Virus record (IMG/VR): IMGVR_UViG_3300012949_000001
Strand: one strand, 5' to 3'
DNA: 64,000 nt
Source of the DNA: a virus
This document shows, piece after piece, positions 7,169 through 63,678 of this stretch; within the stretch, counting starts at the first letter, position 1; each line of letters begins with the position of its first letter. A program made the translations under genes and the position numbers. The notes beneath the pieces were generated by a model. That model saw nothing but the letters and a program-made list of their open reading frames with translations. It had not been told where the DNA came from and did no database searches.

Positions 7169-7230
7169 TGAGTTCACCTACCTATTTATTCTCTATTATC
7201 ATAATACTTATTCTGTTGTGTTATATAATA

Positions 7231-18600: not shown

Positions 18601-18752
18601 GTTTCGTCAAGTGCATTGCTTAAACGTCTCAATCCTGAAGATAGTGCTTTATAACCACCACTTCTATATAACAGTGCTGCACCTGCACCAACAGCTAAAG
18701 CTTTATAGGCTATGTCTGATAATCTATTTTCATTTCTGTTCTTGTTATCCAT
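12624..18752 (-). CDS. Tape-measure-like or large internal virion protein, 2042 aa
   Basis: Size; position directly after tail chaperone genes; mostly helical sequence; glycine-zipper hydrophobic segment; degenerate SNase-like segment. Confidence 0.65.
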   Translation of the reverse strand: MDNKNRNENRLSDIAYKALAVGAGAALLYRSGGYKALSSGLRRLSNALDETMDTVSKTALKDMDAKFVSNAISGFKKAFSEVDDKITLRSDRPESLFNAITEMYQMAQNKSSRLYPIYDDANIRSALKHQFQDLFGTDNPDFTRRAEYVIDDFVDHINSAISYNNDAYEFSSDFLERHFKNNIFNEEQQAQMLDMLTDALERRKEEAAQFVEEHKALADEMLSKFDFENLASYYGRRGEETSKQKLFDKITGDRAATVSDLLENRDKLGEFKIFGLSDEKGRTDRLAQENAMDVLAKLVEKDARYGDIFVDPYALRINEAGELYSFVEAASLKNRFLEEFAQTLPGKLFKTRDYLEIKKAPIYRYIGPGSADPILAKLAEGHDSVLLNNPYVRILDKTYRINLKDNTLEYLSDLDNTYLISGEHGTANRLLKSIVGDVDRKPLGNSRIRNALELGYNAEPSKLKRFTSIFTKFNDPRWSRNLVNSFLTMDENELMFAIQRLQDATDSQEKKAIEQYIGQYFDKAKKLDSFLNQTTRKLDRTTVNKLLEVIPDNHISNAKDMLKLLNMKDEDMINELMQHNFSTFKNKELQSLVKRYLKDSDSARRAMSIVSDNKAIIGTTRAVSFTEMIRKEIAKEAFLSYRDIEGSNLSVIKLLESAGLESTRLKEAKYLANWAILKDTMKNYTGSGVQDINDIAKRALNVQSLFSGLGMEDQEFAEAFRENIETMVKEHASVIQRGFQRDQNIIPGHRLGRYTTMQKSVGVLDMLQNINDQTKVKAFFKQFVAGRDNLEDVTSATMFPYFMLHRLVEGVSDIGLGFTAKSTGSTIDLAKNIMLKRVLPIAGALTTLSYLDYEAKNFTGTSLRGAAANSLANLDLFGRRISDAIGLTSFRKSAYELNPIRQYLNNGQPYHSYEERKEWYERGYTPVRKSRWWSFGSDSEYRGSKIDYFQPNYLRRAHSDWRDIGVYGSSKEKWQHSWIPTPRHPFSPIRALLDPYWLERKHYWDRPYPVTGKLFEEGTPWGAILNPTIGQIIKPQRRMHQAELGNTLVDVRTLIAQRNQEIREKADANNSLVKLDGTGTFTPVSYTPLGAPTGSETVLSLDISGGKVSNYYVTGSEYQAMSVSEYEPTHDMLQARAIAIATGERIDVNNINPNLPVTQRVQLAADRGNIIAGVVRNMIPIDIISSVNESIKAKAISNAPDRNEGIISPDAIFKTSARDKSLIVDPNFAADLRNVTSTRQFLEDAGYSAKELSGMYGFLIDELLPTRKSARLQSADRMASFTRRFWDESLGGLGGEFMEIVRRFIPHEDHNINRINPIRNTMPDWMPERFKLGDPYEKLPKGEMRLPGKAYESINQLHPDQYGRYGAFDRMKILADIAPWSSEYRLWRDIANKTVQDPNLRKEMEEIRERVNQQSKQHDFYPYKFLGVKLDETSGVVESVDNHGFTLVGNDVRYKVAGVKFTEGSLKDFLAPGTNVRLRFDRNDANQKSISAIVIAEGENLNRRLLNSGRAEKSKDDSPIALHARYSQSQIDRAKINELIAHAPIPLIHRKFLRINTPLESLKDEHIYGVPYATWSHPIQGFVIPAINRAFSVSHTHAAIGMTSWVIAEKIAKTESAGAIAKGVSKVAFLLSNPGAFAGAVGGFITRLDGKYVNAGARIGAAIGLAGYAYTNSNNPIFSTGAGAIIGREIAEQFWKGTGKRGAAIGAAAGLALSALKNPSLDLDNMFGPWIPEKVKKRWEIEEYFDRLKYIKYMGLYEKAAKLAKRKENVDIKRLINKYEYDSEKREKIRQQLLANKQLISNTYLEGDERREAMLADIDAKLEALSYPEQILKAGKYTKAAIAYKQAAESTVYGLKKNATWSQVLRAVPKYERDYILEFGQETDPKRRKEILKYISPYRRKVLQILWGEEPTKVKTNREFFANHQLPGVFWAGWQPDIDLDKVAVKTIKNEGMLLSDFGFYESEAEDIETIMAPEVDYDRQTSPLELRKNLLAALNGAGLIGVDVSIEPSSQPGIQMVANIIRINEYKIKQKVNSITGRIFY

Positions 18753-40059: not shown

Positions 40060-41829
40060 CTACCACATTCTACGACCGCCATAATTGCTTCGTTTAAGAC
40101 CAGCGGCTCTAGATCCCCATGTACCACCACTGGCGGGGCTCCTGTACCCTAATGGTACTTTTACCATTGTAGGTCTGTCACCAGGTAATTCTGTAGGATC
40201 ATATTCTAATACCTTCTTAAAATCAGAAGAAAGATTTGTTTGAATAGAGTTAAACATTTTGGTCAGACCTGCACCGCCAAGTTGTACTCCAGTAAACTCT
40301 ATTATTGTGCTAGACTCTGGCATCTTTATTGTCTTCGTAAGCTCTGGGAATTCTAATACGAATGCCAGATAAGCTAAACCAAGAGCATCTACAAAGTGTT
40401 CGTTTTCCTTAGAGAATACAGGGTCTCCAGATGCATTTATTCTTTCTACTTCATAATCGATAAGCTGTTTATGTAATACTTCATCGAATGGCGAAAGTAT
40501 TATCTTTTCTCTTTCAAATGCTATCTGTAATTGAGTAACCATAAACGGCTTAAGAGGCTCTTTGGTCTTTTCGAATGTTATAGGGTCTGTAACTTCAATT
40601 GAGTTTTTAAACTGCCAACCTTTAACCTTATTCTTCAGATTGGTTGCCGGTCTTTCATCTCCGATAATATGGAGACGCTCTATTTGATATTCTCCAGAAC
40701 CTCTGTCACAATAAATCCAGGAAGGATTATATTGTTCATTAAGCTCAACGATTGTATTAACAGCATTATCGTATGAGTACTCGCCTCTTGGTACTTCTAC
40801 TCTCTTTATTACCTTGAATTTGTTTTTATTTATATCAAAATCCAAAATAATGATTGAAGAAGATGCTCCATATTTATCCCAGTCAACTCCCATAGTTCTG
40901 AAAGGGTTCATTGGAGCAAGTTGTCCAGAAGGATAAATGTACATCTTTGGATGCAGATTATTTTGTTTACATTTTTCAAGCTGATAATAATCAAGCTCAT
41001 TATATGCATATAACTCATGTGTTGTCGCTAAGTCTACTTTTGCTTTATTGAATACACCAGTGTCCTGTGTACCGAACTCTGCAAGAATTTCATGTACATA
41101 ACCTTGTTCTGATAACTGAGCTCTAAACTCTGCTTCCATTTCAGGTCCCCAGTTAGGGTTATGAGTAGAAGGATGATAATGCTCAGTATAGCCCATTGCT
41201 TTATTTGTACATGCTTCATAGAACTTAGAACGTCTACCTGTAGGGGTTGATGACATGAAGATACCGATATCGCTACGCTCTGCAGCAATAGTTGTAACAG
41301 TATCAAAGTCGGCATCACTCATATAGTCAACCTCGTCCATGTAAATATAGTCAGCTTTCTGACCGCGGATTGAGGCACCGCCAGAACCAGATGCGGCACC
41401 AGTAGTAAAGCCTAAGATAGCAGATCCATTTTTGAATACAATCTGATATGGATTACTAGTCATCTTTACTACTTCTCTCTTGATAAGAGGAGAAGCATCT
41501 ATAAGTTCTCTTAATCTCATGAATATGAGACGAACCTGGTTCTCATATGGTGTAACTACAAGACAACGATAGTTTGGATGTGTATTTGTTCTATGTAGAG
41601 CATCGATACACATGGTCTCTGTTTTACCAGTACGTCTTCCGCATCGTGCAACTTTCTTTAATGATTTGTCACGAAGCATTTCTTTCTGATACCATCTGGC
41701 AATCCATGGGCCATATGCTTTCTTTACACTATCGTATGTAACAACAAATAATTGAGCCCACTTGACGGGATCTTCCATTATCTCTTTTACTTTTTTAGCT
41801 TCAATCGGAGAAAGTTTCTTCGCACTCAT
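40060..41829 (-). CDS. terL: Terminase large subunit
   Basis: Walker A GRRTGKT, Walker B YIYMDEVD, coupling motif STPTG, nuclease GVDWD and HFVDALGLA. Confidence 0.92.
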   Translation of the reverse strand: MSAKKLSPIEAKKVKEIMEDPVKWAQLFVVTYDSVKKAYGPWIARWYQKEMLRDKSLKKVARCGRRTGKTETMCIDALHRTNTHPNYRCLVVTPYENQVRLIFMRLRELIDASPLIKREVVKMTSNPYQIVFKNGSAILGFTTGAASGSGGASIRGQKADYIYMDEVDYMSDADFDTVTTIAAERSDIGIFMSSTPTGRRSKFYEACTNKAMGYTEHYHPSTHNPNWGPEMEAEFRAQLSEQGYVHEILAEFGTQDTGVFNKAKVDLATTHELYAYNELDYYQLEKCKQNNLHPKMYIYPSGQLAPMNPFRTMGVDWDKYGASSSIIILDFDINKNKFKVIKRVEVPRGEYSYDNAVNTIVELNEQYNPSWIYCDRGSGEYQIERLHIIGDERPATNLKNKVKGWQFKNSIEVTDPITFEKTKEPLKPFMVTQLQIAFEREKIILSPFDEVLHKQLIDYEVERINASGDPVFSKENEHFVDALGLAYLAFVLEFPELTKTIKMPESSTIIEFTGVQLGGAGLTKMFNSIQTNLSSDFKKVLEYDPTELPGDRPTMVKVPLGYRSPASGGTWGSRAAGLKRSNYGGRRMW

Positions 41830-45826: not shown

Positions 45827-46522
45827 CTAAATGACACTTGCCAATATCTCTGTCATGAAATGTGTATCACTATATAATCCTCTTATGTTCTCTATCATAT
45901 TAACATCAACTATCTCACTCTTTGTTGAAGGAGCATGATGTATACTGAAAGCTCCATGACAATCTTCTCGTATAGTTGTCGACAAAGGAGTGCCAACAGC
46001 AATTATCTTTGTATCATTTGTCATTGCAGAGATATAACTTAATGCGTCTTGGTTTGACGATATTACATAGAAAACTTCATCTATGTATACATAGTCATAA
46101 CTCTTAAAATTTATTTCTCGATAATATGTCGTTATATAAATAGAAGAATCATTTGTGAAATATATCTCCCTACTGTTATTTCTTATCATGTATACTGTAT
46201 CCATTAGATTTGATGCGTTTAAACATGATTGCATCTTACGCGACACAAAAGATATGCTAGATTGAGTTGGCACGATTATTAAACACTTGGTTTTTGGTCT
46301 TCTTATTACATTAGCTATAGAATCCGCAATAACAAGACTTGTTTTCCCTATTGAACGGCCTCCTACAACCAATATTTTTTTAGAAGCATCGTTAAGTACT
46401 CTTCTTTGCTGTTCAGTAGGAATAAAATTAATCGGTTCTGTTAAACGCCAATCCGAGAAACGAATATTGTTTTCTATCCAATTTATATTATTTCTCGCTA
46501 AATATGCATTGGTTAAATTCAT
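45827..46522 (-). CDS. Stand-alone terminase-like ATPase domain (no nuclease domain)
   Basis: QQRRVL...VVGGRSIGKT (Walker A), YVYIDEVF (Walker B), GTP coupling-like motif, HHAPST and TEILA; parallels TerL residues 1-250. Confidence 0.7.
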   Translation of the reverse strand: MNLTNAYLARNNINWIENNIRFSDWRLTEPINFIPTEQQRRVLNDASKKILVVGGRSIGKTSLVIADSIANVIRRPKTKCLIIVPTQSSISFVSRKMQSCLNASNLMDTVYMIRNNSREIYFTNDSSIYITTYYREINFKSYDYVYIDEVFYVISSNQDALSYISAMTNDTKIIAVGTPLSTTIREDCHGAFSIHHAPSTKSEIVDVNMIENIRGLYSDTHFMTEILASVI

Positions 46523-49833: not shown

Positions 49834-49872
49834 AGAGGGCCATCTAAAACAGGTGGCCCTCTTAAAATTTGA
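49834..49872 (+). repeat. GAGGG/CCCTC hairpin element H1
   Basis: 12-bp stem AGAGGGCCATCT/AGGTGGCCCTCT, 5-nt loop, then TAAAATTTGA and RBS. Confidence 0.75.
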
Positions 49873-49889
49873 GAGGAGGTGAGAAAGAG

Positions 49890-51442: not shown

Positions 51443-51479
51443 AGTCTAGGAGGGCTCATATGCTGGGCCCTCTTAGACT
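51443..51479 (+). repeat. Hairpin element H2
   Basis: 16-bp stem AGTCTAGGAGGGCTCA/TGGGCCCTCTTAGACT with 2 G-T pairs, 5-nt loop. Confidence 0.75.
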
Positions 51480-51625
51480 AAAAGGAGGAATTATTGATGA
51501 TGTTAAGAGGAGCTTAGAGAAATACAATGATGAATATTTTATTTGCGAAATAGGCTTGACAGAGGAAGGATACAAAAACCTGTTGAATGAGTTAACAAAT
51601 AAAAATAATGTCAAGGAGGAAGGCT

Positions 51626-52279: not shown

Positions 52280-52558
52280 GCAGGGATTAGCAATAAACTG
52301 CTTGGCAGAAGAGTTCAGATGCATAGTAACTGGGATAACATAAGACTGCAAATCATGTATCATGTTTTAAAGGCTAAGTTTACTCAGCATCCTGACTTAT
52401 TAAAGAAACTAAAGCAAATCAATGAACCAATTATAGAGGAGAATCATTGGAACGATACTTACTGGGGAACATGCAATGGAGTAGGCCATAACTATTTAGG
52501 AAGGTTTTTAACGAGAATAAAGAACGAATTGGAGGTCAATGATGATAAGAATAGTTAA
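52280..52558 (+). pseudogene. C-terminal half of a NADAR (YbiA-like) protein, N-terminus missing
   Basis: LLGRRVQMHSNWDNIRL...AKFTQHPDL...IIEENHWNDTYWG...GHNYLGRFL; in-frame TAA at 52277; weak RBS. Confidence 0.65.
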
Positions 52559-52856
52559 TATGAGAAATCACACCTATAGGCTATATGAGGTGCTCATTCG
52601 AGTAGACAGAACCACAACAGTAGGTAATCCGTTTCGTATGTACACTGAAGAGCAACGTGATGAAGTATGCGATAAGTATGAGAGTTATTTTTATCGCAGG
52701 CTTCAAAAGGATAAGAAGTTTAGGGATTATGTTGAGTACATAGTCGACACGGCCAGGAAGCATGATGTGGCATTAGGATGTTGGTGTTATCCAAAACGTT
52801 GCCATGCAGAAACAATTAAACGATATGTTGAAGAACGACTAAGAGGGGACCATTAA
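52539..52856 (+). CDS. DUF4326-like protein
   Basis: VDRTTTVGNPF...R.EVCDKY...LGCWCYPKRCHAETI. Confidence 0.75.
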   Translation: MMIRIVNMRNHTYRLYEVLIRVDRTTTVGNPFRMYTEEQRDEVCDKYESYFYRRLQKDKKFRDYVEYIVDTARKHDVALGCWCYPKRCHAETIKRYVEERLRGDH

Positions 52857-52877
52857 GGTTCCCTCTTAAAATTTGAA
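52841..52877 (+). repeat. Hairpin element H3
   Basis: 11-bp stem AAGAGGGGACC/GGTTCCCTCTT, 5-nt loop, then AAAATTTGA and RBS. Confidence 0.75.
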
Positions 52878-52938
52878 AGGAGGTGATGCAACCATCTTGC
52901 TATTAGCAAATCAATCTATTAAGAAGGGAGGTGCTGAT

Positions 52939-53830: not shown

Positions 53831-53865
53831 AGAGAGGGGTGTCAAATCCCTCTTTTAAAATTTGA
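53831..53865 (+). repeat. Hairpin element H4
   Basis: AGAGAGGGGT/ATCCCTCTTT, 5-nt loop, then AAAATTTGA. Confidence 0.7.
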
Positions 53866-54003
53866 AACGTGTTAGCCTAGCATAGCACGTTAAATCAAAA
53901 GAAAGGAGGATTAATAAGTCAAGACAAAACCATGACTGATATATCCATCAGTCTGTCATGGTGCTAGGAACAAGGTGGATAAAAAATTTGAAAGGAGATA
54001 ATT

Positions 54004-56052
54004 ATGAAAATGCACATCTTCAACAAAATGGACAAGGAACAAGAGGTAAAGATAATATTCAGAGGTCATGAGTTTTCCATGGCTCTGAAGGATCTACTTG
54101 ACAGAGTAGATGCAAATGGTGTTGGTAATATTTTAGGAACCAATGCTTTGTATTTCATTGACAACATCAAGTCAATGAATCCGCTGACAATTGAAATCGT
54201 GTCAGCAGAAACAGAAATGAATACAATCACATCAGCTTCTATTGCAGACAGAATCATGCCTATAGTTCAGAAACGTGGTCGTGGTTTGTCTCACATCCAC
54301 ATTGAACTTGGTATAGTACAAGTAGATGATAAAACCTATTTGAACAACAGGGTAGGTTTTATGAAGGTCCCTGAGAATTTGGCTTCAAGATTAGGAGTGT
54401 TCGACATCGAAGATTCTGTTGTGTTCCGTCATGGCAAAGACTTTGTACGGATTAACTCGACAGATAAATACCCTGCAACATTACAGATTATATCTGTACA
54501 CTATGCAGGGGATGAAGAACAAGGCAAATATGCTATTGAGAATGGCATATTCATGAAGCCTGATAAGAATGGCAACTATAAGTTCTATATCAAACAAGGT
54601 GATAAGTTATACGACTTAGAATCTGGTGAAGTAGTATTTGAAGGGAATGGCTTAATAAAGTATGTGCCATTTCCGTCATCAGCATCCAGTGAGAGAAGGA
54701 AATCGCTCTATTTCATAGATGCTTCCACAGAGGAGAGAAAGAGAAGAGCAGATGAAATTCTGGATTTGGTGACAAGCGGGGCTTATAGCATCGACTATGG
54801 CAAAGAAATGCAGTATGCCAAGTTTGCTAAACTGGCTGGTAGATGGACTCAGTTCCAAGCTCCTTCTGTTAGCCTTGGCTCTGTAGGAAGATATGCCCTA
54901 TTTGATGGGGTAATAAATGAGAACCGCTTGGATGGAATGATGTATGGTTCTGCAACATTTGTTGCAGATGCCATATTAAAGATGAAAGGATACAGGATTC
55001 ATCCAGATGCATTAAACGGTATATTCATGCAGATAAGACCTACTTTGATTAAGGCAGGTATGATTATCACAAAGGATGAGTATATCGAAAATCTGATTTA
55101 CACCCTGGATCCTAATCCGATTGTATTCCGTTATGAAGATGTAACTGAAGAGATTATCAATAACATTCGTAACGGACAATATCGTAACAGGATCATCATC
55201 ATTGGTGATCCTGAAGAACCTATAGCATATGTTGCTGACAGGAATGCACTGAAGTCAGATTATGATTTCAGAATCGTTCCTGAGTTTACTGTACTCAGAT
55301 TCTTAAAGAGTACAGATTCTAATTTTAGCAGCACCATATTCCAGAAGTGCGTTGCTAAAGATGCCAATAAAGCTATTAATCTTGCAAAGAGACTGTTTGT
55401 AGAGTTCTCTGCAGAAAGACTTAATAGCATGTTGGAGCCTAAAGCAAGAGTACTGTCTCCTGATAAGTTTGAAGGAGCATTCTATATGGATGAAATCCTG
55501 GAGAATGTATTCCCGAAATACGTCATGATGGACAGTAATTTTGCAATCAACAAATTAGACAACGTTACTAAGTCAATCAATAAGGCACTGGATAGATTTA
55601 AGGTGCCGATGAATGGTAAGAATGCTGGTCTCACAGTAGGTCTTGAAGTAGCATTTGGACTTAAGAGCTTTCTTGGGGACCATGAAGTATATTGCCATTC
55701 TCTTGAAAGGATGCTTAAGAAAGAAGAACGTCCTGAGGAGAAATGGAAGGTATTCATGATTAAATATCCTTCAATGGATATTGATGAATATCAAGTTGCA
55801 AGACTTGTTTCTACTTCAGAGCTGAAGAAGAGAATCAAGGCATCTGGACTTAGTAAAGACATGCAAAACATGTTCATTGATTACTATTGCAGTCTGCATG
55901 ACTCAGTTATAGTAGTACCTGCTTGTGAAGTATTCAAGAACATGTTGGCTGGTTCTGATTTCGATACTGACCAGGTTTGCTGCAGTATTGATGAAGAACT
56001 TGTTGAGTTACTTGAAAATGAACCTGTTGCTATCGTTTGCAGAGAGGAGTAG
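54004..56052 (+). CDS. RdRP-family (YonO/QDE-1-like) two-barrel RNA polymerase, catalytic part
   Basis: Ordered motifs KLAGRWTQF, LDGMMYGS, FMQIRPTLIKAG, LGDHEVYC, IKYPSMDIDEY and LAGSDFDTDQV. Confidence 0.85.
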   Translation: MKMHIFNKMDKEQEVKIIFRGHEFSMALKDLLDRVDANGVGNILGTNALYFIDNIKSMNPLTIEIVSAETEMNTITSASIADRIMPIVQKRGRGLSHIHIELGIVQVDDKTYLNNRVGFMKVPENLASRLGVFDIEDSVVFRHGKDFVRINSTDKYPATLQIISVHYAGDEEQGKYAIENGIFMKPDKNGNYKFYIKQGDKLYDLESGEVVFEGNGLIKYVPFPSSASSERRKSLYFIDASTEERKRRADEILDLVTSGAYSIDYGKEMQYAKFAKLAGRWTQFQAPSVSLGSVGRYALFDGVINENRLDGMMYGSATFVADAILKMKGYRIHPDALNGIFMQIRPTLIKAGMIITKDEYIENLIYTLDPNPIVFRYEDVTEEIINNIRNGQYRNRIIIIGDPEEPIAYVADRNALKSDYDFRIVPEFTVLRFLKSTDSNFSSTIFQKCVAKDANKAINLAKRLFVEFSAERLNSMLEPKARVLSPDKFEGAFYMDEILENVFPKYVMMDSNFAINKLDNVTKSINKALDRFKVPMNGKNAGLTVGLEVAFGLKSFLGDHEVYCHSLERMLKKEERPEEKWKVFMIKYPSMDIDEYQVARLVSTSELKKRIKASGLSKDMQNMFIDYYCSLHDSVIVVPACEVFKNMLAGSDFDTDQVCCSIDEELVELLENEPVAIVCREE

Positions 56053-56058
56053 TCAATC

Positions 56059-57726
56059 ATGGCTACTTCTCTTTTTATATCATCAAAAAAAATAACAGAA
56101 AGGGAGATTAATGAAATGGTTACTTTAAAGGGCGTTAATGAGGAACTGTATAAGGTATCTTATGAGAGCATTGGTTTAATGACTCTTAAGAAGATGGAAG
56201 GCATCAAGTATAGCATAGGCCAGATTTCAAACTGGGTTACTAAGTGGATAATGGTTAGTCCAGAAGAAATCAGAAAGGCTTTACGTGCTGATGGTTACAG
56301 AGAAGGCCGCAACAAGCACTATATCGGTCTGGTTGGCAAGCACAGCAATGAGATTGAAGAGTTCAAAGATGAGATTACTAAAGCTATCATCTTTGAGGTG
56401 AACTTTGCTCTTGATAAAGCTTGTCACAAAGAAATACAAACTTGCATCTGGTCTGATGAGAACATTAACAAATTCAGACTAGATATGATTAAAATTGGTC
56501 GTCTTTATCAAGAAAAGACGATCGATTATGCTAAGAAACTCTGCAAGTTAGATATCATCAATTCTCCAATGAGACACATTCAACTGTTAAGCATTGCTCC
56601 TATGAATGTGGCATTAGGAGAGGACAGGATAATCATTACACCTCCAATTGAAGACGAGAACAAGATTGTAGTAAATGATATTATCAATCAGGTTCGTCTC
56701 GATTTGGTTAATGAGTATAAGGAGTTTGTTGATGAGAAGCTGCTTCCTGCTATTAAATCAGCAAGACTTCCTAAAGATATGGCTGCAGAATTAGAGAGAC
56801 GTCGTTATGGCGACGTTGAAGCATTCGTAGCCATGAAGGAATATTACAAAGATATCTCTGGAGGATACATCAGAGTTTCTGATGATGTTGAGAGCGGAGA
56901 AGATGAAGAGACTTCATTATCCGTTGTTAAAGAACAGTTCAAGGAAGACAAGGCTCGTATTGAGAACATGATTCGTCTTGCAACACAATATATGAGCCCT
57001 GAAGAAAGAGGAGCATATATGAAGTATATTGCTGGACGCACAAAGAACAATCAGAAAAGAACTGATGGTTCTGAGAATAGGTTCTATCAGGCTCTTTGCC
57101 GTGAAGAGTTCCTGAGGTGGCTTATCAGTCTTGGCCTGAACGAAATAGACTTTGCTGGATACAAACTCTTAAACAATAAGGGTTATGTAGACGGTGATAT
57201 GGTCTGGTTCGAGAATGGGCAGGCTGCAAAGGCAATCATTGATGGAACCTATACAGGTTGGCTTACTATCAGAGAATACAATAATAAACTGTATGCTACA
57301 GTTGATATTAAGGACCTGATAGTTGTGCCTGAACCTAACAACAAAATCATAATCAAAGTACAACAGGGCTTTGTTTCAAAGCATGGTGCTGATAAGATTA
57401 TAAGAGCTATTAATACAAGCCGCAATGTAGTTATCAAGTCTGGAGGCAAAGATGGTTTCGTAATGGACATCATCAATGCCGAAGGTAAGAAGTGCTCAAT
57501 ACCTTATGATCTTAGACCTGTATTCTTCAAGATGTTTAAGGATTTAACAGGTAAGATCGTTAAGGTATCAAAGAATACTGTAAGAACACAGGCAGGTATG
57601 CTTGTTGATTCAGTGTATATTAGCATTGATCTTGATACTGTACCTGAAGGTCCTGAAGTAACTCCTATTAAGTTGCCTGAGGCCTTGACACTTGACGATA
57701 TAGTTGAGACAGATGAAATCATGTAA
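56059..57726 (+). CDS. C-terminal part of split RdRP-family polymerase
   Basis: SIGQISNW and LYQEKTIDYAKK match the post-catalytic RdRP motifs (lG.isn; aVD.aK); own RBS AGAGGAG, 6 nt after the upstream stop. Confidence 0.7.
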   Translation: MATSLFISSKKITEREINEMVTLKGVNEELYKVSYESIGLMTLKKMEGIKYSIGQISNWVTKWIMVSPEEIRKALRADGYREGRNKHYIGLVGKHSNEIEEFKDEITKAIIFEVNFALDKACHKEIQTCIWSDENINKFRLDMIKIGRLYQEKTIDYAKKLCKLDIINSPMRHIQLLSIAPMNVALGEDRIIITPPIEDENKIVVNDIINQVRLDLVNEYKEFVDEKLLPAIKSARLPKDMAAELERRRYGDVEAFVAMKEYYKDISGGYIRVSDDVESGEDEETSLSVVKEQFKEDKARIENMIRLATQYMSPEERGAYMKYIAGRTKNNQKRTDGSENRFYQALCREEFLRWLISLGLNEIDFAGYKLLNNKGYVDGDMVWFENGQAAKAIIDGTYTGWLTIREYNNKLYATVDIKDLIVVPEPNNKIIIKVQQGFVSKHGADKIIRAINTSRNVVIKSGGKDGFVMDIINAEGKKCSIPYDLRPVFFKMFKDLTGKIVKVSKNTVRTQAGMLVDSVYISIDLDTVPEGPEVTPIKLPEALTLDDIVETDEIM

Positions 57727-57790: not shown

Positions 57791-58099
57791 ATGAATAGTA
57801 CAAATAAAACAATGAGCTTGGTGCTTAACCAGTTTGTTCTAAACAGTCTGTTAGCAGACAAAGAAGTAAAAGAAATAGTATTCAAACACATTGATAAGGA
57901 CTTTTGCAGCGACTACTTTGCAAAAGTGACGTTTGCGTCAGATGAACAGGTTGTTCTGTTATTTGACTTTAAGAATAATGCCTGGATAGATGCTAATGAG
58001 ATATTCTTCCCTAAAGGTAAGACACATGAATGCCCATTCCATCCAGGTACTATCTGCAGACATACTTGTGATGAATGCTGGTTTAATAAAACACTATAG
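57791..58099 (+). CDS. Hypothetical protein with C-terminal Cys/His cluster
   Basis: CPFHPGTICRHTCDECW; RBS AAAGGAG. Confidence 0.7.
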   Translation: MNSTNKTMSLVLNQFVLNSLLADKEVKEIVFKHIDKDFCSDYFAKVTFASDEQVVLLFDFKNNAWIDANEIFFPKGKTHECPFHPGTICRHTCDECWFNKTL

Positions 58100-58110
58100 G
58101 AGGGATAAGT

Positions 58111-59289
58111 ATGCTAATAACAGTAAACGGCATCGAGAAAGAAGTTAATGTCATAAAGAAAGGTAATGTATGGGTCTGTAGAGTAGGCGAAGCGATAGCA
58201 TACTGGAATGCGAAGTATCAGATGCCATATGTAATATGTAAAGGTAAAACACTACAAGAGATTAATGAAATGAAACCAGTCATTGTTGCTTATCTGCGTG
58301 AATATAAGAGACTGGTTACATTAGAAAAGAAACCTTCTCCCTTATCATTTGAGGGAGAAGGAATAACTGACTCTGAATATAGAGAACAGAAGTCAGAGAA
58401 GAAAGAAGAGCATTATGTGTCTGGTGTTCCTCAATGGTTGCGTGAAGTAAAGATTAAACAGCTGTGCTCAGGACCCAAAAGAACATTTTATAGAGGCATC
58501 AGAATACCACAGGAATATAAAGACATGGCTAAAAAGTATATTCCATTTTGCTGCAACTGTGTTCACAGAGTTAATTGTGACACGCCTTGTTTATTACCAG
58601 AAGTAAAATCACAAGAAACATTATTAGAAGGTATTGAAAAGGAGGAAATGAATATGTCAAAGTTTTATGGAGTAAAGGTAGGAAGAACAGTAGGAGTTTA
58701 TACAACATGGGCAGATTGTGAGGCTCAGGTAAAAGGTTTTTCAGAAGCACAATACAAAGGCTTTAACACAAGAGAAGAAGCAGAAGAATATGTAGGAATC
58801 AAGAATCAAGCAACAACATCCAGTGAGACACAATCAAACACTAACAGCAAACTTGTTACTATCTATACTGATGGTGCATGCTCAGGAAACCCTGGCCCTG
58901 GAGGTTGGGGCTGCATTCTGATGTATAAGGAGCACTACAGAGAATACTCTGGTTATGTTCCTGATACAACCAATAACCAGATGGAATTATTAGCAGCTAT
59001 TAAGGCATTAGAACAACTCAAGTTCCCTTGCACCGTGGATTTGTATAGCGACAGCAAGTATCTTGTTAACGGTATGAATCAGTGGTTGACAAACTGGAAA
59101 CGTAACAACTGGAGAACAACATTGGGAGCAGTAAAGAATAAAGAATTATGGGAAAGACTTGATGAACTTAACAGCATTCATACTATCAGATGGCATTACG
59201 TTCAAGGTCATGCGTCTAATCAGTATAACAATCGCTGCGACCAATTAGCCACTGGTGCAATAAAGAACAAAGGACCTGTTGCACAATGA
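58111..59289 (+). CDS. rnhA: Ribonuclease HI with hybrid-binding domain and ~180-aa N-terminal extension
   Basis: FYGVKVGR..GVYTTWADC..QVKGF (HBD); IYTDGACSGNPGPGGWG, TNNQMELLA, LYSDSKY, VQGH and NNRCDQLA. Confidence 0.92.
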   Translation: MLITVNGIEKEVNVIKKGNVWVCRVGEAIAYWNAKYQMPYVICKGKTLQEINEMKPVIVAYLREYKRLVTLEKKPSPLSFEGEGITDSEYREQKSEKKEEHYVSGVPQWLREVKIKQLCSGPKRTFYRGIRIPQEYKDMAKKYIPFCCNCVHRVNCDTPCLLPEVKSQETLLEGIEKEEMNMSKFYGVKVGRTVGVYTTWADCEAQVKGFSEAQYKGFNTREEAEEYVGIKNQATTSSETQSNTNSKLVTIYTDGACSGNPGPGGWGCILMYKEHYREYSGYVPDTTNNQMELLAAIKALEQLKFPCTVDLYSDSKYLVNGMNQWLTNWKRNNWRTTLGAVKNKELWERLDELNSIHTIRWHYVQGHASNQYNNRCDQLATGAIKNKGPVAQ

Positions 59290-59293
59290 TTGT

Positions 59294-59329
59294 ATATGAG
59301 AGGGCTCTAATTATAGGGCCCTCTTATAT
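59294..59329 (+). repeat. Hairpin element H6
   Basis: 16-bp stem ATATGAGAGGGCTCTA/TAGGGCCCTCTTATAT with G-T pairs. Confidence 0.75.
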
Positions 59330-59394
59330 TTTGAGAAAGGAGCGTGATGTTATGTTTCATCTGTCTTTTTAATAATGCTCGTATGTATCCACGT

Positions 59395-59760
59395 AACGGT
59401 ACGGCCCCTTCGGGGCGTAGTGAAAAAGGTTCCTTCGGAACTACAGTCATGTTTTCCCTCACACGATATGTTTGAGGTTAAAAGTTCGTCAAAAGGCGAG
59501 CGAGCCCTTCGGGCTATCCCACACACCCTTTGGATAAAAACCAACCGTGAGGGAGACGGGTGCCAGCCTGCTCCCTCACACATCTCCCTTGCATACCCAC
59601 TCATATCATAATTTTACTCTTCCTCTATTATTAACTATTCAATAATAGGGGAAGAGGAAATAAATAGTGACGAGGGTGAACAATCTATAAGTTATTTAGA
59701 TTATGCCCTCACACGCTATTAATGAAGGCTGTCTAAGTTATTGTACGGCCTTATAAAATT
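59395..59760. ncRNA. Structured non-coding region (ncRNA or origin candidate)
   Basis: Three C-TTC-G hairpins, three CCCTCACAC copies, a 9-bp and a 16-bp helix; no convincing ORF. Confidence 0.4.
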
Positions 59761-59777
59761 TAAGCAAGGAGGATATT

Positions 59778-60182
59778 ATGGCCAGCAAACGTATCGCAAT
59801 AGTTTTTAATCATCCTGTCATAGTCAGAATAGATGATGTATTCGACAGAACCAAATCAATCAAGGTATATGACAGGGCGTATGATGACACATTAGACCCC
59901 ATAGGTTACTACAGCTACCATAAGGCGATAACAGAAGTATTGAAAGAAATCGTCAATGCCAATAAGGAAGACATGATATATGGCATCTATGTTGATTTTG
60001 ACACATTGAACAGGGGGTCATATACAGAAGAAATCGCTAAGAAAGAGTTAGAATGTATACTAACAATGCGTGAGTATGAGAGATATCGTAAGCTTACGCA
60101 CTTTAACACAGCGTTTCTTAGCATTAGTTCATGTAACAATTATGAACAGTTAAAGAATATAATACAGGCCCTCACACAATAA
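59778..60182 (+). CDS. Hypothetical protein, possibly degenerate RNase H fold
   Basis: RBS AAGGAGG; YHKAITEVLKEI...IYVDFDTLNRG weakly parallels the RNase H core. Confidence 0.55.
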   Translation: MASKRIAIVFNHPVIVRIDDVFDRTKSIKVYDRAYDDTLDPIGYYSYHKAITEVLKEIVNANKEDMIYGIYVDFDTLNRGSYTEEIAKKELECILTMREYERYRKLTHFNTAFLSISSCNNYEQLKNIIQALTQ

Positions 60183-60318
60183 CTTTGAGGAAGTAACACG
60201 CATATAGAGAGCACGATGTTGCGACCTGTAAGCGTGATACTTTTATAGAAAACAAATATTTCAGGAGGCGTCCGAAGAGAATACGCGACCCCGTTCTGGG
60301 GATAGGAAAGGAGCAAAA

Positions 60319-60855
60319 ATGGCTAGAAATGTAATTATTGTTGGACGTGGAAATTCTATTAGCAGACTGATTTATGATCCCGCTACACAGAAGGCATCCG
60401 CAACAGACTACACTGGACTGGTGAACACTGAAATTAAGGGTAGCACCAGAATCAACTGCTTGAGCGTACTGGTAAGGACTCTCCAGCAGTTGTCCGAGAA
60501 GGAAGGCTTCTTGGAGGAGACAACACCGACTGTTGTATATACTGTTGGCATGGTTGCAGACACAATCAATAACGGCACATTCAAGCATTGGTTGCTTGGA
60601 GAAGGCAAGAAGCTGAACGGTGAAGCAGTAAATGAAAGCGAACTGGAGCTTTGGCAGGAGTTCTCAAGACTTTATACAGAGCTGTTCTCTCACATCATCA
60701 TCAAGAACGTTGCCGACATACGTATTCCTAAGAACCCCAGATATGCTATTTCTATGGAACAGAGAATACTCAATGATTTTGTTGAGAAGGCCTGGGATAG
60801 AATCAAGGTTACGGCTCCAGAGATCGAAGAGAGCGACGACGAAGCGTTCAACTAA
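60319..60855 (+). CDS. Probable catalytically inactive RNase H-fold protein
   Basis: STRINCLSVLVRTLQQL...VVYTVG...INNG...HWLLGEGKKLNGEAVNESELELWQEF parallels RNase HI helices but lacks the acidic triad. Confidence 0.55.
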   Translation: MARNVIIVGRGNSISRLIYDPATQKASATDYTGLVNTEIKGSTRINCLSVLVRTLQQLSEKEGFLEETTPTVVYTVGMVADTINNGTFKHWLLGEGKKLNGEAVNESELELWQEFSRLYTELFSHIIIKNVADIRIPKNPRYAISMEQRILNDFVEKAWDRIKVTAPEIEESDDEAFN

Positions 60856-60865
60856 CAGGAAAAAT

Positions 60866-60888
60866 CGTTCCCCTATACTGGGGGAACG
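60866..60888 (+). terminator. GC-rich hairpin after 60319..60855
   Basis: CGTTCCCC/GGGGAACG stem; no long T-tract. Confidence 0.45.
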
Positions 60889-60949
60889 TTGGTCGCAGAA
60901 CGGTTGAAAAGTCGATACCGTGTCGTCATGCATACGATGTTGCGAATCG
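60889..60949 (+). repeat. Structured repeat motif, copy R1
   Basis: TTGGTCGCAGAACGGTTGAAAAGTCGATACCGTGTC...TGTTGCGAATCG. Confidence 0.85.
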
Positions 60950-61305
60950 CTTTACTCATATTTCACCAGACGAAGTATGAGGACATATCAGGTCTGGCGT
61001 TGGCATCCCTAACCAGCATAGGGTGTCGCGAAAATACAAAGCTGGTAGCCGTGTTTTTCATTTGTTTGGCGGCGGAAAATCAGAATAACAAGTGCAGGGT
61101 ACCCACTCTGAAAACTGGGTAGAGAATGGGTGCGGACATTCTCCCTACGTCCCGCACGATGTAGGAATATTCGGTATATATGCAAAGGTCCCGGCCGGAG
61201 CATGGTTGCCTCTTGTTCATAGGAACAACAGGTATATATATTGTCATGAGTATATGCGTAAAAAACCTGTTCCCAAATGACATTCCGGTCTTTGAGGGCA
61301 GGTTT

Positions 61306-61373
61306 TTGGCCACAGAACGGTTGAAAAATCGAAACCGTGTCATAGTATGTCCAGGCTATGATGTTGTGGATCG
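61306..61373 (+). repeat. Structured repeat motif, copy R2
   Basis: TTGGCCACAGAACGGTTGAAAAATCGAAACCGTGTC...TGTTGTGGATCG. Confidence 0.85.
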
Positions 61374-61641
61374 TCGTCTTATAGGCTGTCGTGTCCTGAC
61401 TACCAGACTATAAGAACAGAGACTTCCTTTCTTATAACGAAGTGTCAGGTAGGAGACCCATCCTATGCTATAGACATTATAGCAGAATGGTAGAGAGTAG
61501 GATGTGGCTACTCTCCCTGCAACCACATCAAGCGGGCATGTATTTGGAATATGTATTTGGAGAAAAGCTGAAAAGCCCACGCCGCTAGGAGAAAACTCGG
61601 CCTTGGGGAAAGAGAGAAATGAGGACCGAAGGCGACGTGGG

Positions 61642-61700
61642 TTGGTCTCAGAACGGTTGAAAAGTCCATACCGTGCTAATCAGATTAGTGTTGAGAATGG
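61642..61700 (+). repeat. Structured repeat motif, copy R3
   Basis: TTGGTCTCAGAACGGTTGAAAAGTCCATACCGTGCT...TGTTGAGAATGG. Confidence 0.85.
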
Positions 61701-61726
61701 CAAATACGCACAAGGAGGCATAACAT

Positions 61727-62002
61727 ATGAACACCAGTAACACAGTAAGGCTTTCAGGGACACATGATTTTGGCCCGTTATATAAGTTTAAGCCAGACAT
61801 AGGTTTACTTATAATACTGCCGCCAAACTGTATGAGGAAAGCCTGTACTAAAGGACGTATTAAAAAGAGTATAGTAGCAAAGTTGAGAGACCTGACTCTG
61901 GAGAACATGCTTGATCTCAATGAAAAGCATGGTGTAACTTTCGAGGCAGTGAACAAGACTTTGGTACTAGAGAAATTAAGAATGGGAGGAACACTGTCAT
62001 GA
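61727..62002 (+). CDS. Hypothetical protein, 91 aa
   Basis: RBS AAGGAGG. Confidence 0.65.
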   Translation: MNTSNTVRLSGTHDFGPLYKFKPDIGLLIILPPNCMRKACTKGRIKKSIVAKLRDLTLENMLDLNEKHGVTFEAVNKTLVLEKLRMGGTLS

Positions 62003-62280
62003 AGGTAAGAGGTAAAATAGTTCTGAAAGGTTCTAAGGTTATTCTATCAGACGTCGAATTAGACTGCCAGAATATCGAACTTGAATATGAAGCAAGTTAT
62101 TCAGTCAAAGAACTGGCTGATGTGTTTGATTTATTGCCAAAGGCAGTGGATAAAGTATGTGAAGCAGGAACGAAACTCATAACAGGACAAAACAATATTG
62201 TATCATTAGAAGATATTGTGAATGAATTGATAAAGTATGAGGCGGAGACAGCTTCAACAGAAGAAGACACAGAAGAGTAA
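61999..62280 (+). CDS. Hypothetical protein, 93 aa
   Basis: RBS GGGAGG; ATGA overlap with the previous gene. Confidence 0.65.
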   Translation: MKVRGKIVLKGSKVILSDVELDCQNIELEYEASYSVKELADVFDLLPKAVDKVCEAGTKLITGQNNIVSLEDIVNELIKYEAETASTEEDTEE

Positions 62281-62298
62281 CTGATAGGAGGCATACCT

Positions 62299-62796
62299 AT
62301 GGCACCAACAAAAGAGATAGACGTATTCGTAGACGGCAGCTGTACAGGCAATGGCCAGCCTGGTGCCGAAGGAGGTTGGGCATTCTTTGCGACACTGCCT
62401 AACTCAATAGATATAATAAATGGGTCAATCCATATAGGCAAACTCAGGATAGGCAAGCAAACAAATAACAGAGCCGAACTTGAATCAGTCTATCAAGGTT
62501 TACTATGGATAGACGCACAACCGAATGATGGAACAAGATATACTATATGGAGTGATTCAGAAGTAGCTGTTAATGGTATAAATGGTTCCTCTGGAAGAAA
62601 TGCGAATAGAGACATATGGGAAGACATCGAACCACTATGTAGAAAACTCGTAAGAGAAAAGAAACTTGCAGGAGTAAATTATATTGAAGGTCATAAGAAA
62701 AACAGCACAGAGCCCCGTCACATAAATAATTGTGCATGTGATAAATTGGCTAAGCAAGGAACCAATAGTTTATTATTAGAACCATATCAACCATAA
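62299..62796 (+). CDS. Second ribonuclease H (RNase HI family)
   Basis: VFVDGSCTGNG, TNNRAELESV, IWSDSEVAVNG, IEGH and NCACDKLAK; catalytic D/E/D/D present. Confidence 0.88.
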   Translation: MAPTKEIDVFVDGSCTGNGQPGAEGGWAFFATLPNSIDIINGSIHIGKLRIGKQTNNRAELESVYQGLLWIDAQPNDGTRYTIWSDSEVAVNGINGSSGRNANRDIWEDIEPLCRKLVREKKLAGVNYIEGHKKNSTEPRHINNCACDKLAKQGTNSLLLEPYQP

Positions 62797-62812: not shown

Positions 62813-63631
62813 ATGGCTAAACCTACAGTAAATAATGACACTGTAATAGTATTCGGTGGCAAGACATATAATGTTGAACAATTTGCCAACGAATTTTCAG
62901 CTGGTAATACAGATATAGCTATTCTCACAATGGAGAAATTGTTGGAGACAGGTAGAGCTCATCTGTTTAACGAAGTCAAATCAAGACAAATTAAAGCACT
63001 GGAGAAGACATTTACAGAACAGCAAATCAAAGAAGCCGCAGCAGAACATGAATATTTCGAAGAAGCAGGAAAAGACTTCAGAGCCGAAGAGAAAAGAGAA
63101 GGAAGACTCACATATGAACTTGTTGAGTTTGATTTCCCTTATATGTTGAAGGCTCAGGAGTTTGAACGTTACGTTAAAGAAGACCTCAGGATAAAAGATA
63201 CAGAAATATCTGTACGTAACGGTCAATGTGTCCTGAAGGTTTATAATGTAACTGATTCAGAAATCAATGTAATGAGTAGAGCCTATAAGGCAGATAAGAT
63301 TACCCAGACTGCCGTAGGAGCTGTAGATAACACTGTCAAGAAAGCAACAGACGCTGTTCATTATGGAGCAACTAAGATTGTAGCTCCTATAGCAAAAGCA
63401 GGAGCAAAAGCAAGTGCAAGTATTCTGAAGACAGTGTTGACCACCGCAGCAAAGACAGCAGGTGGTTTTGTATCAGCGACCACTCAGGGAATCAAGAGTG
63501 CCGCAACCGAAATCAAAAATGATCCTGATGTATTAAAAGGAACAAGAGATGTCCTTGAAGCTGGTGACGCTATCAGACGTAAAATCAAGTTTGAGCATCC
63601 TGGCGGTAAAGGCATTCGTGTTTACCAGTAG
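62813..63631 (+). CDS. Hypothetical protein, 272 aa, Ala/Thr-rich C-terminus
   Basis: RBS AAAGGAG. Confidence 0.7.
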   Translation: MAKPTVNNDTVIVFGGKTYNVEQFANEFSAGNTDIAILTMEKLLETGRAHLFNEVKSRQIKALEKTFTEQQIKEAAAEHEYFEEAGKDFRAEEKREGRLTYELVEFDFPYMLKAQEFERYVKEDLRIKDTEISVRNGQCVLKVYNVTDSEINVMSRAYKADKITQTAVGAVDNTVKKATDAVHYGATKIVAPIAKAGAKASASILKTVLTTAAKTAGGFVSATTQGIKSAATEIKNDPDVLKGTRDVLEAGDAIRRKIKFEHPGGKGIRVYQ

Positions 63632-63633
63632 GT

Positions 63634-63678
63634 TAAGAATGTGATGAGGGGGAAGATAATTCTCCCTCACACTTCTTA
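63634..63678 (+). repeat. Hairpin element H7
   Basis: TGAGGGGGAA/TTCTCCCTCA core with GATAA loop, extended by a bulged outer stem. Confidence 0.65.

Follow-up and report, generated by a model that had tools for sequence, protein, structure and literature searches.

A phage gene module of a putative split RNA polymerase, an inactive RNase H-fold family and structured RNAs, with a possible role in handling RNA:DNA hybrids

YonO of prophage SPbeta is a two-barrel RNA polymerase made of a single chain. The closest functional parallel to the locus described here comes from the nucleus-forming Chimalliviridae, phages with a non-canonical RNA polymerase of their own and with a phage RNase H, Rhc, that is reported to act in DNA replication and, as a separate role, in transcription, where it probably resolves R-loops (PMC13648698). 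A second set of parallels concerns replication origins. Replication of phage T7 starts at the tandem promoters phi1.1A and phi1.1B, every T7 origin needs a promoter for T7 RNA polymerase, and host RNase HI blocks the origin in plasmids, which replicated in E. coli only once rnhA had been lost (PMC8373140). Here, we analyze a module of genes and structured non-coding DNA in a 64,000-nt stretch of viral DNA (the window; IMG/VR record IMGVR_UViG_3300012949_000001). Its core, at 58111-62796, lies directly downstream of a gene for a putative RNA polymerase. Rhc, a DNA polymerase subunit, is a single protein fused to a clamp-derived domain (PMC13648698); unlike Rhc, the window has three separate RNase H-fold genes, one of them catalytically dead, beside an RNA polymerase gene and structured RNAs. 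The module resembles the T7 primary origin and the priming of ColE1 by RNA II in that tandem candidate promoters are followed by a tract of lower guanine+cytosine (GC) content, with RNase H genes and a long structured RNA beside them. Unlike the window with its RNase H genes, a T7 origin needs no RNase H (PMC8373140). The module thus combines known kinds of parts in a new arrangement that, as far as we have found, is not described in the literature.

The module is best explained as a deeply conserved early or middle operon carried by tailed phages of an uncultivated lineage, which come from anaerobic digesters, manure and habitats of that kind. We compared it with relative loci on contigs of uncultivated phages (labeled L001-L007, L091, L093, L095 and L096). 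Every locus with enough sequence keeps the same order: polymerase, gap, dead RNase H fold, one to four small open reading frames (ORFs), a gene of the Pfam RNase_H family and a homolog of a 272-aa protein. This synteny spans contigs of 14-242 kb and dead-fold proteins that are 23-68% identical. The gap before the dead-fold gene is 260-1150 nt long and contains two to five direct copies of a lineage-specific motif of 9-18 nt among tetraloop hairpins, and the final conserved protein of the module has 224-275 aa across the relatives. More variable is the slot between polymerase and gap. It holds an RNase H1 with a hybrid-binding domain (HBD) in six places (the window, L002, L003, L005, L007 and one further contig), a PIF1 helicase in L001, and proteins of no recognized kind in L004, L091 and another contig. 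PIF1 helicases unwind RNA:DNA hybrids. Their appearance in the RNase H1 slot is the best comparative hint at the role of the slot and would favor the handling of such hybrids. An earlier note on this DNA, made from the letters without database searches, had proposed a dedicated system of polymerase, structured RNA and RNase H genes, and this idea is supported by the deep synteny: in every relative with enough sequence, polymerase, RNase H genes and structured blocks lie in linkage. The function that the note suggested for the system, RNA-primed replication or R-loop control with dead folds as adaptors, stays hypothetical. The region does lie directly downstream of the split polymerase, as the note had placed it, with the GxDxDxD loop of that protein present in all relatives. 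The non-coding blocks that it had called structured also have folding z-scores of −7.7 (59395-59760), −2.6 (60183-60318) and −4.8 (60866-61726) against shuffled sequences.

The most distinctive protein of the module is a catalytically dead type-1 RNase H fold (60319-60855, plus strand). Its AlphaFold2 (AF2) model, built on an alignment with 13 close homologs, has a predicted local distance difference test score (pLDDT) of 89 and a predicted template modeling score (pTM) of 0.84. In VIA comparisons, the model matches the RNase H domain of foamy-virus reverse transcriptase (7o0g) with a Z score of 13.4, E. coli RNase HI (1goa) with 12.0 and human RNase H1 (8swc) with 11.9, and the top 15 VIA matches are all RNases H. 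Foldseek likewise pairs the model with E. coli RNase HI (E 3e-6), and the AFDB clusters that it matches carry the name RNase HI. Besides the fold (Z 12-13.4), the protein shares with type-1 RNases H the pattern of the substrate-handle region, W..GKK..G..VN..ELELW..F..LY. Unlike them, it has none of the DEDD(H) catalytic residues: aligned with the two other RNases H of the window, the catalytic positions read R10, N46, G77/M78, P137 and N152, in a sequence alignment anchored on secondary structure rather than a residue-level superposition. It also differs in its added acidic C-terminal tail, PEIEESDDEAFN, and in having no match in Pfam or PHROG; members of its family likewise match no Pfam family.

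This protein is one member of a stable, inactive family with the RNase HI fold. Searched with a profile, 1.84 billion representatives gave 102 clusters at E ≤1e-3, 63 of them at E ≤1e-10. Among 46 aligned members, 31 have K or R in place of the first carboxylate, and 32 have N in place of the second. Because the family comprises at least 102 clusters and conserves both the handle residues and the tail, the dead fold is not a decaying copy. Having the fold while lacking the catalytic residues and any profile match, it constitutes a pseudo-enzyme family of its own. Comparisons of the family by hhalign with the window's own RNase H, with an orphan ORF described below and with a 178-aa protein of L004 were not significant, and a search of GTDB genomes returned no relative of the dead RNase H.

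The other two RNase H-fold genes encode active-looking enzymes. The first (58111-59289, plus strand) is an RNase H1-type protein that matches Pfam RNase_H (PF00075; E 8.6e-47, 159.3 bits against a cut-off of 25.8) and phrog_531 (E 5.8e-59). Like RNase H1 with its HBD, it carries a hybrid-binding domain of the Cauli_VI family at residues 184-227 (PF01693; E 2.9e-20, 72.7 bits against a cut-off of 21). Its catalytic domain (residues 248-383) has the full DEDD(H) set, D254, E292, D314, H367 and D377. Unlike known RNase H1, the protein has an additional Cys-rich N-terminal part of ~180 residues, for which profile searches give no match. The second enzyme (62299-62796, plus strand; 165 aa) matches Pfam RNase_H (E 7e-16, 59.1 bits against 25.8) and phrog_531 (2.6e-20) and, like E. 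coli RNase HI, has all of the catalytic residues (D12, E60, D86, H132 and D148), so that it too looks active. An RNase_H gene occupies the same slot in L001, L003, L005, L091, L093 and L095.

The earlier note had counted up to four RNase H folds here: two with full catalytic residues, which the Pfam matches and DEDD(H) sets bear out; one inactive fold at 60319, which the structural matches to type-1 RNases H and the missing carboxylates confirm; and a weak candidate at 59778, which gained no support. The ORF in question (59778-60182, plus strand; 134 aa) has zero homologs among 5.8 billion proteins. Its single-sequence AF2 model has a pLDDT of 50.6 and its ESM Atlas model 0.42, and with this low-confidence structure, no RNase H appears among the matches of Foldseek (best E 0.9) or VIA (best Z 5.3, to vasohibin). 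The order of secondary-structure elements in the model is compatible with RNase H, although the model is unreliable. The tandem motif flanks the ORF, with its fourth copy on one side and its fifth on the other. These two copies are 463 nt apart in the window, compared to 38 nt in L003 and 35 nt in L005, indicating that the ORF is a lineage-specific insert. Indeed, the closer relatives L003 and L005 have no ORF at this spot, and L001 has an unrelated one of 113 aa. Hence, the RNase H folds with support number three rather than four. The note had meant to give up its proposal if neither 59778 nor 60319 had the fold and the linkage was not conserved; the fold of 60319 and the linkage stand, and only the fold of 59778 is unsupported.

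The polymerase gene before these genes (54004-57726, plus strand) encodes a putative two-barrel-type polymerase split into parts of 682 and 555 aa. Its match to the Pfam family of eukaryotic-type RNA-dependent RNA polymerases (RdRP; PF05183) is weak (E 0.024; 13.8 bits, below the cut-off of 23.8), and a sequence search of the PDB gave no useful match. The DxDxD metal-binding loop reads GSDFDTD in the window and GLDTDWD, GMDHDFD, GADFDYD, GLDYDFD, GADHDFD or GLDFDTD in homologs; all of these homologs, fused or split, keep the GxDxDxD loop (hmmsearch E 1e-47 to 1e-102). Large size, a DxDxD metal loop and weak similarity to the eukaryotic RdRP family are features that this phage protein shares with YonO-type polymerases. 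Unlike them, it resembles any profile only weakly (E 0.024) and is split ~30 aa past the loop, as in many of the lineages. In the window, the split site is at 56052-56059. The polymerase is also split right after the loop in L003, L091 and L095, the partial gene of L005 is split as well, and L001, L002, L004 and L093 have fused forms. L095 (6649-7224) and L096 have an additional ORF of 191 aa between the two halves. Following the polymerase in the window is a 102-aa ORF (57791-58099, plus strand) without a significant Pfam or PHROG match; L005 has a 117-aa ORF at that position.

Between the RNase H1 gene and the dead-fold gene lies the first non-coding block (59290-60318), whose parts recur in the same order in relatives: a hairpin, a micro-ORF, ACGTAAC-loop hairpins, UUCG hairpins, motif copies, a low-GC tract and a leader. 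This architecture is shared by L001-L007. The opening hairpin (59298-59340, plus strand) reads GAGGGCTC..GGGCCCTC, with TTATATTTTGA next to it, and is one of a sequence-conserved family of hairpins with T/A-rich sequence after them. Other copies of this GAGGGnn-loop-nnCCCTC hairpin with TTAAAATTTG(A) are found in the window at 49834-49875, 51449-51490, 52845-52885 and 53836-53875, and in relatives at L001 8955-8990, L002 9290-9325, L003 9380-9415 and L004 9255-9290. In the window, the hairpin with TTAAAATTTG occurs on the plus-strand gene arm only, usually directly 5' of a ribosome-binding site (RBS). The form GAGGG..CCCTCTTAAAATTTG is identical across L001-L004, whose polymerases are 20-27% identical to that of the window. 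This hairpin may serve as a terminator, or as a structured promoter recognized by a conserved factor. Directly 3' of it, with a strong RBS, is the micro-ORF MFHLSF* (59352-59372, plus strand); ORFs of 6-13 codons occupy the same spot in relatives (MLSSMVF* in L003, MSVLNF* in L002 and 13 codons in L004).

The remainder of the block (59385-59760, plus strand) contains an ACGTAAC-loop hairpin, three C(UUCG)G hairpins that differ in stem sequence, copies of the motif CCCTCACAC at 59456, 59573 and 59706, and an AT-rich tract of hairpins. The GC dip of this tract (59610-59689) is modest, 0.30 against 0.35-0.59 in neighboring 80-nt windows. After the orphan ORF, and overlapping its end, comes the motif copy at the fifth position (60169-60177), which is followed by a conserved 5' leader of the dead-fold gene of ~140 nt (feature 60169-60318, plus strand; folding z-score −2.6). 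In total, the window has five copies of CCCTCACAC against 0.15 expected, all of them on the plus strand, four in block 1 and one after the 272-aa gene, and copies often have AAAACC directly 5'. The last copy (63664-63672) forms part of the 3' arm of a hairpin (63645-63672, plus strand), a placement also seen in L003, L005 and L001. The tandem motif itself is specific to lineages: CCCTCACAC in the window and L003-L007; CCCCACACAAAAyTATAG, in five copies, in L002; GCCCCAyTTATAC, in four copies plus one after the 272-aa homolog, in L001; TTCCTACGGAGTT in L091; CCTCTGCTTATTTTTTAG, in four copies that are each followed by a GCAA-loop hairpin, in L093; and CCACTCACAC, in two copies, in L095.

What could these copies be? 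The simplest account of a short, oriented motif that varies by lineage while a neighboring hairpin stays constant is that it acts as the promoter of a fast-evolving phage polymerase, and the copies are thus candidate promoters for the polymerase of the module. Iterons were considered and rejected, as the spacing of the copies has no helical phase and the tetraloop hairpins indicate RNA. Ordinary intrinsic terminators or sigma-70 promoters were rejected as an account of the blocks; sigma-70-like promoters are not in excess (14 found, 16.9 expected).

The second non-coding block (60866-61726) follows the dead-fold gene and contains a 27-mer in three copies against zero expected. On the plus strand, a hairpin that closes the dead-fold gene (60866-60888) directly precedes the first copy of a motif that we call M (60888-60949). 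Next come a unit of non-coding RNA (ncRNA), unit A (60950-61304, with a kissing-hairpin domain at 61118-61168), a second copy of M whose pseudoknot is reduced to three pairs (61305-61373), ncRNA unit B (61374-61640, with a kissing-hairpin domain at 61489-61540), and a third copy of M (61641-61700) that ends ~13 nt 5' of the RBS of the next gene. Motif M is ~65 nt long and folds as a pseudoknotted three-way junction, a structure derived from 17 instances. A hairpin of variable sequence, followed by UUGG, precedes every copy. Stem P1 comprises 5 bp; P2 mostly reads ACGGU/ACCGU; the sequence of loop L2 is UGAAAAGUCGAU; and P3 is a variable hairpin that is sometimes absent. In the pseudoknot, the last four bases of L2 pair with the four bases that follow P1, and the two sides switch together, from CGAU/AUCG in some copies to CCAU/AUGG in others. 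Among the 12 aligned copies on which covariation was counted, 99.1% of cells are paired, compared to 79.2% in shuffles (0 of 500 as high) and 22%-44% in slid controls, and 11 of the 18 pairs have compensatory changes on both sides. Short forms of M carry P2 as GCCU/AGGC or GUCA/UGAC.

Motif M either opens an ncRNA unit, at its 5' end, or stands ~10-25 nt 5' of an RBS, for example that of the 91-aa gene that follows block 2. In L002 (11163-11615) and L006 (1539-1994), a free-standing gene for an HNH endonuclease (phrog_3377; E 1e-47 and 1e-43) has inserted between the dead-fold gene and the ncRNA, and this gene carries its own short motif M, at the same distance from its RBS, with no P3 and an altered P2. 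M is also found after a hairpin and 5' of genes in contigs without sign of the module (L062 687-746, L064 1696-1755 and, on the minus strand, L071 428-502), one of them binned as a metagenome-assembled genome (MAG) of the Lachnospiraceae; GTDB genomes gave one true instance, in a Lachnospiraceae MAG. The occurrence in apparently unrelated contigs and in this MAG means that M is wider than the phage module, and its distribution hints at a clostridial host range. Pattern scans yielded little more: in IMG/VR, all 40 matches to a loose pattern were due to chance, none of them with P2 pairing, and in JGI metagenomes, 2 of 22 matches were true.

The ncRNA units between copies of M are 270-400 nt long; the window has two, and L003, L005 and L006 have one each. 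They share the domain GGUAG-h1-h2-h1'-CCCUGC-h2'-GCAGG, in which two hairpin loops pair together, and the kissing hairpins h1 and h2 exist in four fully compensatory versions. G-U pairs on the plus strand identify plus-sense RNA as the folded species. With covarying helices, a pseudoknot and invariant unpaired nucleotides in M, and with covarying kissing hairpins in the ncRNA, these RNAs resemble Rfam-type structured RNAs. Unlike the self-cleaving ribozymes, riboswitches and large phage RNAs in Rfam 15, they match no family: a search of 59290-61726 gave no match at gathering scores and only chance-level rows at E ≤10. A group I intron was rejected as an identity for the ncRNA because there is no split host gene and no Rfam match, and a type III toxin-antitoxin repeat array was rejected because there is no matching toxin fold. 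The ncRNA bounded by M has been seen only in the clade of the window. The gap after the dead-fold gene is different and shorter in L091 and ~75 nt in L093 and L095, so the dead-fold protein is far more widespread than the ncRNA.

How might these parts work together? Our preferred reading, held tentatively and at somewhat less than an even chance, is that the module is a polymerase-linked operon that handles RNA:DNA hybrids and is driven by a tandem promoter array. The tandem motif copies would be promoters for the phage's own adjacent polymerase, driving very heavy transcription, in which one long transcript covers the dead-fold gene, the ncRNA and the gene for the second RNase H. Motif M, which follows a hairpin and UUGG and precedes an ncRNA unit or an RBS, would mark boundaries of RNA processing or stabilization, such that the ncRNA is released and the 5' ends of mRNAs are defined. 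The two active-looking RNases H, together with PIF1 in one lineage, would remove or trim the RNA:DNA hybrids left by the polymerase, and the dead fold, with its substrate handle and without a metal site, may bind hybrids, or partners via its acidic tail, without cutting. Several observations weigh against this reading. The assignment of the putative polymerase consists of a weak Pfam match and a DxDxD loop, and hybrid binding by the dead fold is proposed purely on its sequence. The HBD-RNase H1 is absent from L004 and a further contig, and L002 has no second RNase H. L004 has the motif of the window even though its polymerase is 27% identical, so co-variation of motif and polymerase is loose, which weakens the case for promoters. 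In addition, there are only five motif copies in 64 kb, with none on the structural arm, and the listed sequencing runs that contain the phage are all DNA, with no RNA run among them.

An alternative with a modest chance of being right is that there is no special coupling. The RNases H would then be ordinary replication accessories that remove Okazaki primers and arose by duplication, with one copy decaying to a structural or regulatory protein, and the blocks would be a mixture of promoters, leaders and unrelated phage ncRNA within one early operon. RNase H genes are common in phages (phrog_531), gene order in phage operons is kept by descent, motif M is not confined to the module, and the components vary: beyond the second RNase H missing in L002, the HBD-RNase H1 is missing in L001, L004, L091 and L093. 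However, a decayed copy is hard to reconcile with a dead fold that has at least 102 clusters and a conserved handle and tail, and that adjoins the polymerase, upstream of the active RNase H, in all of the divergent lineages examined. Nor would this alternative lead one to expect a second class of R-loop enzyme, PIF1, in the RNase H1 slot of L001. It is also possible, though unlikely, that the module is a transcription-primed replication origin, in which transcripts of the array or the ncRNA would form a hybrid that RNase H trims to a primer while the dead fold shields the hybrid. The tandem motif array is followed by a tract of 30% GC and adjoined by HBD-RNase H1 or PIF1, and no DNA polymerase, primase or replicative helicase was recognized among the larger ORFs scanned in the window. 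That T7-origin plasmids depend on the loss of rnhA makes a hybrid-shielding dead RNase H plausible. On the other hand, nothing marks or maps an origin in the region. The turn in GC skew, at 47-48 kb, coincides with the switch of gene strand and not with this region, the AT-rich tract is modest, and the motif spacing of 35-181 nt in relatives has no helical phasing. Furthermore, the window does not span the whole genome, which may have replication genes elsewhere, and the giant ORFs of the window are unannotated; motif M also stands before ordinary genes in unrelated contigs.

Parts of these readings could apply together. The polymerase may fire from the tandem promoters and the resulting hybrids start replication, with the HBD enzyme trimming them, the dead fold shielding or marking them and the second RNase H clearing them, while the same transcript yields processed ncRNA bounded by a new pseudoknotted class of RNA that is possibly self-cleaving or nuclease-blocking. 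We regard this full combination as distinctly unlikely. A very unlikely alternative is that the dead fold and the ncRNA form a ribonucleoprotein with a role of its own, perhaps as a decoy for a nuclease or defense system of the host, with the RNA freed by processing at the copies of M. The dead-fold gene adjoins the ncRNA and is apparently transcribed together with it, the conserved tertiary pairing in the ncRNA is elaborate, nucleic-acid binding is common among RNase H-like folds, and an anti-defense-type gene (Tad8) is nearby in L095 and L096. This alternative is weakened by the distribution of its two partners, as the ncRNA with M is confined to the clade of the window while the protein is far more widespread.

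The wider setting of the module is consistent with a tailed phage. The window covers most of a large contig from such a phage, with genes for major head protein, portal, large terminase, sheath and fiber on the minus strand, and the plus-strand gene arm begins near 47.9 kb. On this arm, genes for a cell-wall hydrolase, a DivIVA-like protein and DUF4326 lie 5' of the module; the last of these is a DUF4326/DUF488-like gene at 52539-52856, 5' of the polymerase. Within the module, two small ORFs of 91 and 93 aa (61727-62280, plus strand) precede the second RNase H gene, and similar small ORFs occupy that position in relatives. The conserved 272-aa protein (62813-63631, plus strand) has homologs in L091, L093 and L095 at E 1e-25 to 1e-46, and the ESM Atlas gave nothing usable for it. 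Downstream of the module in distant relatives are genes of the Tad8 family and of DUF488-N3a (L095 17756-18438). Elsewhere in the window, the minus strand has two giant ORFs, 2-7177 (>2392 aa) and 12624-18752 (2042 aa), neither of which has a Pfam match at E ≤1e-3. Also on the minus strand is a gene for a 231-aa ATPase (45827-46522) that matches DEAD-helicase (E 4e-6) and terminase N-terminal (E 2e-4) profiles and is separate from the large terminase at 40060-41829. A tRNA scan found no tRNA. Searches of sequencing runs detected DNA of the phage in bioreactor, manure, biogas, sludge and aquatic metagenomes. Among 50,697 phage records, there were zero matches, either by near-identity DNA search or by tblastn with the polymerase, and a scan of IMG/VR with the polymerase returned no relative.

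What does the module mean for phage biology? A family of at least 100 clusters of dead RNase HI-fold proteins, encoded beside a polymerase and without Pfam or PHROG annotation, is now defined, as are two strongly covarying RNA structures that match nothing in Rfam. The tandem motifs are candidate lineage-specific promoters for a class of phage polymerase for which the material we examined had established no promoter specificity. If the origin reading is true, the module would be a phage-encoded equivalent of transcript priming in ColE1 or mitochondria. If the coupling to RNA:DNA hybrids is true, this would be a second phage system, independent of Rhc, that ties RNase H to a non-canonical polymerase, and a dead hybrid-binding protein would be its new element.

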